IMG/VR virus record: IMGVR_UViG_3300032283_000551
Coordinates: 13,042 to 77,041 of that record
DNA: 64,000 bases
Direction: 5' to 3' (one strand)
Source of the DNA: a virus
Lineage: Duplodnaviria > Caudoviricetes
The stretch's first letter is position 1. Every line of letters begins with the position of its first letter. The position numbers were made by a program, and so were the translations under genes. The notes beneath the pieces are model-generated. The model was not told the origin of the DNA. It was given only the letters and a program-made list of their open reading frames with translations, and searched no databases. Positions 59,564 through 64,000 of this stretch are shown here, piece after piece.

Positions 59564-60967
59564 ATGGACTTCGAAAAGGTAATCTTTGGAAATCTTCTTG
59601 CAAGGGAGGAATATGGCCGAAAGGTCATTCCTTTCCTCAAGACTGATTATTTTCATGATGCTGCAGATCGTACTTTATTTGAACTTATCGAGGCTTATAC
59701 ACTAAAATATAACAGATTTCCCACCAAGGAAACTCTTTCAATTGATCTAAAAAATAAAACTGGACTAAATGGCGGTATATTCGAGTCATGTAATGAAACC
59801 ATCGGTGAACTTACACATGATGACAATACCGAATTGGATTGGCTTGTTGAGCGAACCGAAAAGTTCTGCCAAGAAAAAGCAATCTATAATGCAATTATGC
59901 AATCAATTCAGATCATTGATGATAAAGATACAAAGAACGACAAGGGTTCTATCCCAGCAATTCTAAGTGATGCTCTATCCGTAAACTTTGATACCAATAT
60001 TGGTCACAACTTCCTTGAGGATATTGAATCTCGTTTTGAATTCTATCATCGTAAGGAATTCCGTATTCCGTTTAACTTGGAATACTTCAATGAAATCACA
60101 AAGGGTGGTTTGCCTAGGAAGACTTTGAATATTATTCTGGCTGGTACTGGTGTTGGTAAGTCGCTATTCATGTGCCATTGTGCTGCCGGTAATCTACTTG
60201 ATGGCAAGAATGTTCTTTATATTACAATGGAAATGGCCGAGGAAAAGATTGCCGAACGTATTGATGCCAATCTTCTCGATGTGACAATTGATGACCTTAG
60301 TATTATGCCTAAGGAAGCATTTTTCAAGAAATTGGAGCGTGTTAAAACCAAGACCACTGGTCGACTTATTATTAAAGAATATCCAACATCAGGTGCCGGT
60401 TCTGCTAATTTTAGGCACCTAATTAATGAATTGAAGCTCAAGAAGAACTTCATGCCTGATATTATCTATATTGACTATCTGAATATTTGTGCATCAAGTA
60501 GGGTAAAGTACTCTGCTAATATGAATAGTTATACGTATATCAAGGCCATCGCAGAGGAACTTCGTGGTCTTGCAGTTGAATTTAATCTCCCAATTGTTTC
60601 CGCTACACAGACAACCAGAAGTGGCTATAATAATAGTGATGTTGAATTGAGTGATACCTCGGAATCATTTGCTCTACCTGCTACGGCTGACTTGATGTTT
60701 GCCTTGACTACATCCGAGGAACTTGAGAGTCTGGGTCAAATAATGGTCAAGCAATTGAAAAATCGTTATAATGATCTAGCAAAGAATAAACGGTTTGTCG
60801 TCGGTGTTGACAGAGCAAAGATGAAACTATATGATGTTGACCAATCGGCCCAGGATGGAATTCAAGATGATAAGCCACTAATGGATAAAACTGAATTTGG
60901 TGAACGTGACTCTGATTTCTTTAAAAAGAGATCAAAGTTTGGTAAGAGTTTTGATGGATTTGCATAA
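59564..60967 (+). CDS. gp41: Replicative helicase gp41
   Basis: LAGTGVGKS, YITMEMAE, IDYLNI, SATQTTR, SESFALP.TAD, KQLKNRY. Confidence 0.98.
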   Translation: MDFEKVIFGNLLAREEYGRKVIPFLKTDYFHDAADRTLFELIEAYTLKYNRFPTKETLSIDLKNKTGLNGGIFESCNETIGELTHDDNTELDWLVERTEKFCQEKAIYNAIMQSIQIIDDKDTKNDKGSIPAILSDALSVNFDTNIGHNFLEDIESRFEFYHRKEFRIPFNLEYFNEITKGGLPRKTLNIILAGTGVGKSLFMCHCAAGNLLDGKNVLYITMEMAEEKIAERIDANLLDVTIDDLSIMPKEAFFKKLERVKTKTTGRLIIKEYPTSGAGSANFRHLINELKLKKNFMPDIIYIDYLNICASSRVKYSANMNSYTYIKAIAEELRGLAVEFNLPIVSATQTTRSGYNNSDVELSDTSESFALPATADLMFALTTSEELESLGQIMVKQLKNRYNDLAKNKRFVVGVDRAKMKLYDVDQSAQDGIQDDKPLMDKTEFGERDSDFFKKRSKFGKSFDGFA

Positions 60968-61006
60968 AAATATTTTTTTATTTTTTTCTAAAATCGTGAT
61001 CTTGAG

Positions 61007-61014
61007 TATAAATA
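61007..61014 (+). promoter_or_regulatory. Late promoter driving a non-coding unit
   Basis: TATAAATA with no credible ORF before the next terminator. Confidence 0.8.
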
Positions 61015-61019
61015 ATATC

Positions 61020-61167
61020 ACTGAAGCGGCATTAGTTTGGCTTTTGTCAAGCAAGTGGCACAGTGACTAACAGAGAAGGAATAGCTAGGAATAACGGTGG
61101 GGTTCCGCCTAGCAATGCCGCATTCGCTATTCAAAAGGGTTGAGTCCGAAAGGCTCAACCCTTTTTT
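61020..61167 (+). ncRNA. Candidate late-transcribed structured ncRNA (~150 nt)
   Basis: Bounded by TATAAATA and terminator; GCGGCATT/AATGCCGC, GCTAGG/CCTAGC, TTGGC-TTTT-GTCAA. Confidence 0.65.
61133..61167 (+). terminator. Rho-independent terminator
   Basis: GGGTTGAG-T-CC-GAAA-GG-CTCAACCC then T6. Confidence 0.9.
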
Positions 61168-61169
61168 AT

Positions 61170-61177
61170 TATAAATA
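61170..61177 (+). promoter_or_regulatory. Late promoter
   Basis: TATAAATA upstream of 61215. Confidence 0.8.
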
Positions 61178-61214: not shown

Positions 61215-62342
61215 ATGGATTCGTTCAAGCATTATATAACCGAAGTTGCTTTACAAGCTTCTGGTCGTGAAGCCGCTAGACATACAGCAAAATATATTAC
61301 TCCATATATTGGCAAAGAAGGTACTCATACTATTGCATCAAAAGCACCAGGTTTAAATATAGGTGATAGTGTAACCATACATTCACATCACGTAGATGAT
61401 CAAGGTACTCATCATATAGTGGTATCAAAACCTGGGTCATCCGAAAAAATTACCATTCCTACTTCAAAAGTCCATAAAGTAGGGACAAAAATGGAAAATG
61501 AAGGTCATAAAGTAGAAACAAAATTCTTTGAAAGAATGAAAAGTAGAGGTTTAACACCCGAAGGTGCAGCTCCAGCTGGATCCACGGGTGGTTCGGATGT
61601 TACAGTAGTTAATAAAAGAAAAAGAACGACACATACCGGTAGAGATGTCAGTAGTAATGCAGAACAATATAACGGTGAAGTAAAAAAAGATACTGGTGCT
61701 GCTTTTGGTCAACTAACAATTGAACATGATCCTGATAAAGGTGGCTGGCATATTCCAGATAGGGCAAAAAAATTAAGACCTGGCTATGCGGATGCAATCG
61801 AAAAAGCAGGTCTCATAGAACATATGAATAAAAATGTGCCAGAACCAAATAAAGCCCCTACGACAGCAAGTGGTAGAGCACAAAATATTACAGCCCCACA
61901 CCCAGACTTAAAACCAGCAGAAGCTTATTTGGGTGATCATCATGTGGATTTTCTACACGTAGGTAGTCACGGTACTTATAGAGTTGGTGAAAATGATACG
62001 ACCGGTCATGGATTACCACGACTTACAGGTAAAGGTCTTTGGACTGCTCGTCAAAAAACATCGGATCCTTATAAAAGAACAATTCAGTTTCAACCTCACG
62101 GTAGTAGAGGATTAAATAAAAGTCATGTAAATCTTGATAATGATACACATCTTGATGAATTTGCAGAAACTTTGGGTCATGGTAAAGTTCCTAATACTAA
62201 AAATGAAACACCATCACCGACAAAAGAACAACCAAAGGTAGAACCAAAAGTTGCAGCAGTAAATTCAATATTACAAAATCGACAAAGAGTACGTAAACCA
62301 ATACTTGGTAAAAATACAATGGTGAAAAAAGGTTTACGATAA
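61215..62342 (+). CDS. Putative internal head protein, His-rich, possible PD-(D/E)xK-like domain
   Basis: MDSFKHYITE capsid-targeting-like N-terminus; GSDVTVV...GEVK; 24 His in 375 aa. Confidence 0.6.
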   Translation: MDSFKHYITEVALQASGREAARHTAKYITPYIGKEGTHTIASKAPGLNIGDSVTIHSHHVDDQGTHHIVVSKPGSSEKITIPTSKVHKVGTKMENEGHKVETKFFERMKSRGLTPEGAAPAGSTGGSDVTVVNKRKRTTHTGRDVSSNAEQYNGEVKKDTGAAFGQLTIEHDPDKGGWHIPDRAKKLRPGYADAIEKAGLIEHMNKNVPEPNKAPTTASGRAQNITAPHPDLKPAEAYLGDHHVDFLHVGSHGTYRVGENDTTGHGLPRLTGKGLWTARQKTSDPYKRTIQFQPHGSRGLNKSHVNLDNDTHLDEFAETLGHGKVPNTKNETPSPTKEQPKVEPKVAAVNSILQNRQRVRKPILGKNTMVKKGLR

Positions 62343-64000
62343 TGCTTAATTTTGTAAATTATCTTCACGAAGAAGCGGATAATCAAGGTAAACATTTAAA
62401 ACATCTTACACATGTCGAAGATCATGCAATTTATGGTGGCCACGAAGGTATTTCACAAGCAACTGAAGCACTAAATGCACTTCATAATCATCTTCTTGGT
62501 AAAAAATCTAATCATGCTTTTTCAGATAAAGCAGATGGTGCACCATCTATAGTTTATGGTAATCATCCTCAAACTGGTCAATTCTTTGTTGCATCAAAAT
62601 CAGCATTTAATAAAAACCCAAAGATTAATTATACAGAACAAGATATTGATAGAAATCATGGTCATGCACCAGGCCTTGCGCTTAAATTAAAAGAAGCATT
62701 AAAACATCTACCAAAAACTATGCCGGAATCCGGTGGTGTATATCAAGGGGATTTGATGTATGGTAAAGGTGATGTCAGTACAAAAGAAGGACATCATCAC
62801 TTTACACCAAATCTACTTACATATTCTGTTGATAAGAATAGCTCTGAGGGTCATAAAGTCAAAAATTCAAAACTCGGTATTGTAACACATACAGTATATA
62901 AAGGTAAAGGCGGCCTTGAAAATATGGCCGCCGAACCTTTATCTGCAAAAGAAAGAAAAACTTTTGCCGAGCATCCAGACGTAAACAATATTGATCCATC
63001 ACAAACTTCTGGTAAAGTAAATCCAAGAAATTATACTGGTGAAGAACAAGCAAAATTTCATATGCATATGGAAAATGCTAGAAAAGCATATTCTAAAGCA
63101 GCACCAGAAATGTATGACTCAATAAAAGGTCACGAGGCAACATTAGAACAACATATTAATGATCAAGTCCGAAAAGGTGGTGCACCTTCTGTTGAAGGTT
63201 ATACAAAATTTTTGACAGATAGAGCACAAAAAGAAATTGATAGTGTAAAAACAGAAAAGTCCAAACAACAGAAACATCAAGCACTAGCAAATAAATTAAA
63301 ACATATTTCAGATAATAGAAAACATTTTGAAAATTTATTAAAAATTCATGGTCATTTACAAAATGCAAAGAATGTTTTGCTTGGTGTTCATGATAAAAAT
63401 GGTCAAACCGAACGAAATCTTTTAGGTAAAACTTCTATTAATGGTAATCCAACCGCTGGTGAAGGTATTGTTGGTACCAATAAAGAAGGACATATGTTTA
63501 AATTTGTGAATAGAGGTGCGGGTGGATTTGCACAACAAAATTTAAGTGGTGGTAGATTCCAAAAAGTTACAGAAGAACAAGAAAAACGTGATGTAATCAC
63601 ATTTGGTCGTTTAAATCCACCAACTATTGGACACGAAAAATTAGTTAATCATGTTCAAAAACTTGCAAAAGATATACATGCTGATCATATAATTGTGATG
63701 TCAAATTCACAAGACAGTAAAAAAAATCCATTAACACCTGAACAAAAACTAAAACATGCTAAAAGAGCATTCCCAACGGCAAACTTAAAAATTGCCACTG
63801 CGGAACATCCAACTCTATTACACCATTTGTCTAAACTTCATAGTCAAGGTGTAACTCATCCGACAATCGTAGTTGGCCAAGATAGAGTTGAAGAATTTAA
63901 AAAACTAACCGGAAAATATAATGGTGTTTCCGCACGTCATGGTTACTATAACTTTAAACATATAAACATACAATCTGCAGGCCAACGAGATCCTGATGCT
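62342..64000 (+). CDS. Ligase-like (DUF6267-like) plus HIGH-family cytidylyltransferase-like fusion, 3'-truncated
   Basis: Frame checked open from ATG 62342 to window end; KADGAP, QGDLM, GEGIV, FKFVNR motifs, then TFGRLNPPTIGHEKL...KNPL...VVGQDRV..F. Confidence 0.8.
   Translation, partial: MLNFVNYLHEEADNQGKHLKHLTHVEDHAIYGGHEGISQATEALNALHNHLLGKKSNHAFSDKADGAPSIVYGNHPQTGQFFVASKSAFNKNPKINYTEQDIDRNHGHAPGLALKLKEALKHLPKTMPESGGVYQGDLMYGKGDVSTKEGHHHFTPNLLTYSVDKNSSEGHKVKNSKLGIVTHTVYKGKGGLENMAAEPLSAKERKTFAEHPDVNNIDPSQTSGKVNPRNYTGEEQAKFHMHMENARKAYSKAAPEMYDSIKGHEATLEQHINDQVRKGGAPSVEGYTKFLTDRAQKEIDSVKTEKSKQQKHQALANKLKHISDNRKHFENLLKIHGHLQNAKNVLLGVHDKNGQTERNLLGKTSINGNPTAGEGIVGTNKEGHMFKFVNRGAGGFAQQNLSGGRFQKVTEEQEKRDVITFGRLNPPTIGHEKLVNHVQKLAKDIHADHIIVMSNSQDSKKNPLTPEQKLKHAKRAFPTANLKIATAEHPTLLHHLSKLHSQGVTHPTIVVGQDRVEEFKKLTGKYNGVSARHGYYNFKHINIQSAGQRDPDA

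Follow-up and report, generated by a model that had tools for sequence, protein, structure and literature searches.

A structured RNA family with late-type gene signals downstream of the gp41 helicase gene of uncultured T4-like phages

Described RNAs of phages and the locus downstream of gp41

To our knowledge, T4-type phages are among the best-studied of all viruses, and they make small stable RNAs for which we know of no role. In T4, the species 1 and 2 RNAs (rnaC and rnaD) are processed from a tRNA precursor and are encoded at the end of the tRNA cluster. Phage phi29 encodes the pRNA, which is about 120 nt long, has a multi-helix junction closed by the pairing of its 5′ and 3′ ends and forms rings via complementary loops; we know of no T4-type packaging motor that uses RNA. 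In lambdoid phages, short RNAs such as lambda 6S RNA and StxS (PMC7547250) are transcribed from a late promoter to a nearby terminator, upstream of late genes, and are by-products of Q-dependent antitermination whose promoter is common with the late operon. Comparative genomics of phages and metagenomes has added a number of orphan structured RNA motifs (Weinberg et al. 2010, PMC2864571), and a bulk prediction on IMG/VR has yielded 8,495 unnamed RNA candidates (Fremin et al. 2023, PMC10690425).

How does the locus described here compare with these systems? In a window of 64,000 nucleotides, by which we mean the whole stretch of DNA that was analysed, a structured-RNA unit occupies positions 61007-61167 of the + strand and consists of a TATAAATA box, some 100 nt of GC-rich body sequence and, at the 3′ end, a strong intrinsic terminator. 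Like rnaC and rnaD, this RNA is small, stable-looking, free of open reading frames (ORFs) and encoded by a T4-type phage; however, it lies beside gp41 with its own late box and terminator, 9.5 kb from the tRNA array of the window. ARAGORN called 23 tRNAs, all at 48.5-51.5 kb, and no tRNA or tmRNA at 61 kb, and the conserved UGGGGUU loop of the RNA falls, by inspection, outside the T-loop and anticodon-loop consensus. The general architecture resembles that of pRNA, but no loop complementary to UGGGGUU is present, the loops of the other two hairpins are variable, and no sequence or model match links the phi29 pRNA to the family. The short length, the late-type promoter, the nearby terminator and the position upstream of late genes recall the lambdoid RNAs; in contrast to those, the late genes here are served by a separate promoter, and a multi-helix fold is conserved in the body. 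With the orphan motifs, the RNA has in common that it is known from sequence alone, is backed by covariation, comes from phages and aquatic habitats and has no assigned function. None of the orphan motifs with an Rfam 15 entry, among them manA and wcaG of T4-like cyanophages, matches it; the family may be one of the 8,495 unnamed candidates of 2023 (PMC10690425). What distinguishes it from the orphan motifs is that a whole gene (promoter, body and terminator) and a fixed place after gp41 are defined.

Layout and common fold of the RNA

The gp41-type helicase gene of the window ends at 60967 and is followed by 39 AT-rich bases up to the TATAAATA box (61007-61014), which, by analogy with T4, would serve as a late promoter of the gp55 type. 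The probable transcription start is the A at 61020, the sixth base past the box; an A after a pyrimidine occurs at the same spacing in most family members. The RNA body has a GC content of 0.48, compared with 0.25-0.37 in the flanks, and the + strand of the unit has a folding energy of -57.8 kcal/mol (z = -5.1 relative to dinucleotide shuffles). In the minimum free energy (MFE) fold, the 5′ strand of the closing helix P1 (61023-61033; GAAG followed by CGGCATT, with GCGGCATT at 61026-61033) pairs with a 3′ strand (61114-61125) made up of AATGCCGC (61114-61121), a bulged A61122 and TTC, and covariation supports this pairing. Hairpin P2 (61036-61051, containing TTGGC-TTTT-GTCAA), which rests on the MFE fold and on a comparison of members, has six pairs and a UUUU loop. 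Next come the conserved junction strand J2/3 (61054-61060), AGUGGCA in the window and AGNGGCA in the family consensus; the P3 region (61061-61077), for which the MFE fold gives no convincing hairpin in the window copy; and the conserved junction strand J3/4 (61078-61083, GGAAUA), followed by G61084 as the first base of P4. The P4/P5 arm (61084-61113) consists of P4 (GCTAGG, 61084-61089, with CCTAGC, 61108-61113), an A-rich bulge (AATAA, 61090-61094), P5 (61095-61097 with 61105-61107) and the invariant 7-nt loop L5, UGGGGUU (61098-61104). The intrinsic terminator (61133-61167) has a 14-pair stem and a T run, and a separate TATAAATA late box at 61170-61177, which belongs to the next gene (61215-62342), forms the 3′ boundary of the unit; all of these features lie on the + strand. 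A preliminary description of this DNA had drawn attention to the box at 61007, the terminator, the second box and the GC content above that of the flanks, and its coordinates were correct throughout.

All 13 copies of TATAAATA in the window, from 7038 to 61170, lie on the + strand, a bias that fits late-promoter use. Their number is not above the expectation from shuffled sequence (8.75).

Judged by sequence comparison, the RNA is a member of a widespread, phage-only family of uncultured T4-like phages. A homologous element was found downstream of gp41 in eight of the closest gp41-neighbour loci from IMG/VR, and a pattern of two conserved blocks, in which GGAAT and GGTGGGGTTCC were held fixed, matched at least 120 IMG/VR stretches. 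Among the matches listed, there were 129 pattern matches, 96 of them with at least five of the six flanking P4 pairs, and these 96 represent 75 distinct sequences, in all of which P4 is paired at 6/6. Three more divergent members (L007, L070 and L072) were recovered without the pattern, so that the RNA plan is present in at least 78 distinct uncultured T4-like contigs, with E-values of 1e-26 to 1e-4 under the covariance model R1. Because GGAAT and GGTGGGGTTCC were fixed in the scan, their invariance rests on L007, L070, L072 and the gp41-neighbour seeds.

The common plan runs from the late box through the 5′ strand of P1, P2, AGNGGCA, P3 and GGAAUAG to the six pairs of P4, an A-rich bulge of 4-5 nt and the three pairs of P5 capped by UGGGGUU. 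The return strands of P4 and P1 are 0-1 nt apart, and a short linker leads to the terminator. P1, which begins 6-8 nt past the late box, comprises 8-14 pairs between the 5′ and 3′ ends of the body. In the alignment of 78 sequences, which was fitted to the covariance model, 93.2% of the cells are paired (64.7% after shuffling), and double changes occur in 18 of 19 pairs. The covariation score amounts to 0.79, compared with 0.24 in shuffled alignments (none of 500 reached 0.79) and 0.07-0.18 when the partners were slid by 1-3 columns. P4 and P5, moreover, were predicted unaided by RNAalifold on a plain MAFFT alignment, and both are 100% paired in the 78 sequences. The first P5 pair, which is the top mutual-information pair, occurs in all four Watson-Crick types (CG 33, AU 25, UA 18 and GC 2); L007 and L072 differ in the remaining two P5 pairs as well, with the loop still UGGGGUU. 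In P1, double compensatory changes were seen in all ten modelled pairs, with 87% of cells paired. The pairing of GCGGCATT with AATGCCGC and of GCTAGG with CCTAGC around an AATAA bulge, which the preliminary description had read from the window alone, thus covaries across the 78 relatives far beyond chance.

The two remaining hairpins are more variable. P2 and P3 were analysed by script and are not part of the covariance model, as their variable stems defeat the column placement of MAFFT. P2, the TTGGC-TTTT-GTCAA hairpin of the preliminary description, takes the form of 53 distinct stems in 76 members, and at least five contiguous pairs are formed in 88% of members compared with 28% of shuffles. 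P3 is a short variable hairpin in most members and is degenerate in the sub-lineage of the window; one P3 pair appears in the mutual-information scan. The 11 strongest column pairs of that scan are all modelled helix pairs, and it revealed no covarying partner of UGGGGUU in the family and no pseudoknot or tertiary pair. Three further pairings suggested earlier gained no support from comparison. First, TTAGT/ACTAA is present in the sequence but gains no comparative support from the scan. Second, a possible pseudoknot, TCACTG/CAGTGA, has an uncompensated mismatch in L202, the closest relative that differs, and gives no mutual-information signal. Third, the alternative pairing GAATAGC/GCTATTC is broken by a 5-nt insertion in L202 and is likewise without a mutual-information signal.

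About 20 bases, in AGNGGCA, GGAAUAG and UGGGGUU, are invariant. In an alignment that was not chosen on the motif, the GGC of J2/3 is invariant and the flanking A and G are nearly so; in the members found without a motif query, J3/4 reads GGAAAAG (L070 and L007) or GGAAUAG (L072). The helices contain 89 G-U pairs and 14 A-C mismatches, an excess which indicates that the structure belongs to the RNA of the + strand and not to the DNA. We also considered a small protein gene and rejected it: the spacer between the invariant blocks is 12, 13, 14, 15 or 17 nt, so that single-nucleotide indels shift the frame and no reading frame is kept, and no frame is open in most members.

Two structural variants were observed. 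In one sub-lineage (L005:4657-4786, L150, L176 and L194), the late box and P1 are separated by an additional 5′ hairpin. In another, a hairpin replaces the A-rich bulge and the unit is inverted relative to gp41 (L070:4913-5047 and L072:4442-4583, both on the - strand).

Independence of the unit and distribution of the family

In 76 of the 78 members, a NNTAAATA box precedes P1, with 3-29 nt (mode 7) from the end of the box to the first pair; it reads TATAAATA in 52, ACTAAATA in 15 and takes other forms in 9. Under a strict rule, 74 of 76 members have a terminator after the RNA, and the hairpin of the remaining two is followed by a shorter T run; the mean energy of the terminator stem is -16.8 kcal/mol. 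A second late box lies within 45 nt past the terminator in 53 of 74 members, and most of those without one belong to a single sub-lineage with a sigma-70-like promoter and small genes at this place. In L070 and L072, the inverted unit is convergent with the gp41 operon and has retained its own TATAAATA and terminator. The RNA unit is therefore independent of its neighbours, and there is good support for the earlier proposal of a late RNA with a gene to itself: the box in 76 of 78 members, a terminator in every member that could be judged and the retention of both in the inverted units.

In L092, L096, L100, L118, L131, L163 and others, TTTACA, 17 nt and TATAAT follow the RNA terminator and precede ORFs of about 80-110 aa. 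The sigma-70-like promoter and small ORFs downstream place what would be a late RNA gene between early-looking genes.

The position of the unit is nearly constant. Among the matches listed, gp41 lies upstream of the RNA in nearly every locus with enough flank (66 loci), and 67 loci have an ORF of about 67 aa (phrog_29065) in the interval from gp41 to the RNA. This ORF is absent from the window, both at 60968-61006 (compare L002:4404-4607) and in the rest of the 77-kb contig. The RNA itself is not found in every relative. A model search found one copy in the 99%-complete relative G003 and none in the 98%-complete relative G001, and in L001, the relative with the most similar gp41, the RNA is missing and the small ORF leads directly to the terminator and the next late box. 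From this pattern of presence and absence, we deduced that the RNA is a single-copy accessory cassette.

The search of Rfam proposed in the preliminary description was run against Rfam 15 (4227 models, at permissive E-values up to 10), and the RNA matched no family. Chance matches fell on the terminator part only (STnc390, 17 bits against a threshold of 50), and nine further family members gave no recurring match. Searched with the covariance model, the whole genomes of five cultured T4-like phages (T4, Syn9, Melnitz-2, DLP_6 and HTVC008M) lack the RNA; the best R1 score in T4 has an E-value of 0.78 and is not at rnaC or rnaD. Searches of the GenBank phages by blastn with four family members (the window copy and three from other subfamilies) and with the 56-nt core of the window copy yielded no real match. 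In 185,579 bacterial and archaeal species genomes, the strict pattern gave ten matches, one of which is a true copy. Across these searches, the RNA was restricted to uncultured T4-like phages. The searchable literature contained no description of the RNA family and no paper mentioning DUF6267, a domain encoded by one of the genes downstream of the RNA. What the preliminary description had asked of related contigs, namely the same element after gp41 and covariation, was found in both respects, and the conservation extends beyond the terminator to the fold of 78 members.

The true copy among the bacterial genomes (L202:1051-1164, - strand) is on a 1.7-kb contig in a Pseudobdellovibrionaceae MAG. 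It is near-identical to the RNA of the window, with promoter and terminator kept, and L202 is more likely to be a phage contig placed in the wrong bin than the carrier of a bacterial gene.

Neighbouring genes and possible modes of action

What might such a unit do? We consider it probable that it is an autonomous gene for a stable, structured, trans-acting late non-coding RNA of about 145 nt. On this proposal, the late (gp55-type) apparatus would start about 6 nt past TATAAATA and end at the RNA's own intrinsic terminator. The ends of the body pair as the long closing helix P1, which carries the junction, P2, P3 and the bulged P4/P5 arm, and P1 and the terminator hairpin would protect the RNA ends. 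The invariant junction and loop would then form a recognition surface, working in trans late in infection, and a phage or host protein might bind this surface, with the RNA serving as a scaffold, decoy or cofactor. Protein binding is the most likely mode of action in our estimation, although we put it forward tentatively; we prefer it because proteins commonly bind RNA hairpins that have a bulge and an invariant loop. As to Hfq-type sRNAs, considered from the side of the RNA alone, the terminator and U tail are present, the 5′ end is within P1, and the conserved single strands are in the junction and the 7-nt loop. Early or middle transcripts that read through from the gp41 operon would also end in the RNA body, as a 3′ tail, so that expression need not be confined to late infection.

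The family provides a sharply defined case: its gene is complete and bears late-type signals, its fold is well supported and about 20 of its bases do not vary. Uncultured T4-like phages of aquatic origin have retained it in at least 78 distinct contigs, and close relatives can do without it. The defined fold, the invariant bases and the dispensability make the RNA a tractable target for synthesis, for probing and for use as bait for partner proteins, and natural pairs of genomes with and without it exist for comparison.

The genes downstream of the RNA, which lie on the same strand in 76 of 78 members, vary and belong to several unrelated families. Two are frequent: a HAD/PNK-like phosphatase gene (phrog_415, E = 3e-9), often immediately 3′ of the RNA, and DUF6267. 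Of the 37 loci with 3 kb or more of flank, 27 encode DUF6267 on the same strand no further than 4.5 kb downstream. When modelled (pLDDT 88), the DUF6267 domain matches RNA ligases best (5cot, Z 9.0; REL1, 8.6; T4 Rnl2, 7.9; Trl1, 7.9; T4 Rnl1, 7.8), all of these Z-scores being moderate; Foldseek with the same model gave weak DNA-ligase matches only. A KYDG motif is invariant in 27 DUF6267 homologues. Many downstream genes (61215-62342 and 62342-64000 in the window, L005:5844-7055, L003:6094-6702 and those of other loci) encode N-termini of the form MxxFxxF[IL]xE, which we take to be like the capsid-targeting sequences of T4 internal proteins. Given the RNA-ligase folds, the KYDG motif and these N-termini, 'ligase-like' and 'internal-protein genes', the terms used for the neighbours in the preliminary description, are reasonable labels. 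A PDB sequence search with two proteins downstream of the RNA gave no match. The DUF6267 and HAD/PNK-like genes may form a capsid-packaged 'heal-and-seal' RNA-repair set.

These neighbours raise the possibility, put forward in the preliminary description for packaging and for the ligase-like protein, that the RNA is a partner, a substrate or a capsid cargo of the late DUF6267 or HAD/PNK-like phosphatase proteins, which would bind, repair or ligate it or take it along into the capsid; we regard this as unlikely. Their proximity, the RNA-ligase-like fold and the capsid-targeting-like N-termini all speak for it, and the rsr-yrlBA-rtcBA operon is a precedent for a non-coding RNA encoded beside RNA-repair genes. 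YrlA, a Y-RNA-like RNA encoded beside Rsr and RtcB genes, and the RNA described here, often beside RNA-repair-type enzymes, are both structured non-coding RNAs; however, no Y RNA or YrlA model of Rfam matches the family, ARAGORN called neither a tRNA nor a tmRNA here, and no Ro/Rsr gene came to light. The distribution of the genes tells against the partnership. Melnitz-2 has gp41, one gene and DUF6267 in this order and no RNA in its whole genome; G001 has DUF6267 and a phosphatase-like gene without the RNA; G003 has the RNA and DUF6267 without a phosphatase-like gene; and in loci of the L092 type, the RNA is followed by small early-type genes, with DUF6267 9 kb away. The association among gp41-neighbour loci (5/7 compared with 3/33) is confounded by shared descent. 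An obligate partnership was rejected, since each of the two genes is found both with and without the RNA. We likewise give little credence to the idea that the RNA is the nucleic-acid part of a late particle, formed with a capsid-targeted neighbour protein (e.g., DUF6267) and delivered to the next host, or that it is a new ribozyme or free-standing aptamer with the junction and UGGGGUU as its active site.

Could the RNA instead act in cis, as a riboswitch, an attenuator or a put-like antiterminator whose body responds to a ligand or alters RNA polymerase and thereby gates read-through of the terminator from 61007? Terminating riboswitch aptamers share with the family a P1 helix, an invariant junction and an intrinsic terminator a few bases on, and the order of promoter, P1-closed multi-helix junction, terminator about 8 nt further on and same-strand genes in 76 of 78 members is that of a riboswitch. 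The highly conserved junction bases and the covarying P1, P2 and P4/P5 are aptamer-like as well. We nevertheless consider a cis-acting leader improbable. No antiterminator was detected in 75 members: the 3′ part of the fold pairs with the 5′ arm of the terminator at -7.62 kcal/mol, compared with -7.65 kcal/mol after shuffling (p = 0.84). The next gene mostly has its own promoter, whether the second late box (53/74) or, in most of the others, the sigma-70-like one; the unrelated families downstream do not make up a coherent regulated set; and the units of L070 and L072 are turned against the gp41 operon. The RNA thus seems to exert no cis control over a neighbouring gene.

A role as a 3′-end element of the gp41 operon, protecting or processing its early or middle mRNA with the late box being incidental, seems highly improbable to us. 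The RNA does always lie just past gp41 or the ORF of about 67 aa after it (66-67 loci, among the matches listed), and the same position of the terminator in L001, right after the ORF, suggests that the RNA reuses the terminator of the gp41 operon. Nonetheless, the late box near P1 is kept in 76 of 78 members, a stabilizer would need no invariant junction or loop, the inverted copies of L070 and L072 cannot belong to the gp41 transcript, and the window retains the RNA though the small ORF has been lost. As for a self-acting RNA, either a new self-cleaving ribozyme or a free-standing small-molecule aptamer, its chances are very slight: invariant bases do cluster in junction strands and one loop amid freely covarying helices, as in such cores, but the cores of protein-binding RNAs show this pattern just as typically, none of the ribozyme and riboswitch models of Rfam 15 matched even at E-values up to 10, and the mutual-information scan detected no tertiary covariation.

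A trans-acting, probably protein-bound RNA thus remains our preferred reading, and the site past the helicase operon emerges as a hot spot for the insertion of RNA genes and of variable, apparently capsid-targeted proteins. In the window, DUF6267 is fused to a cytidylyltransferase-like domain.
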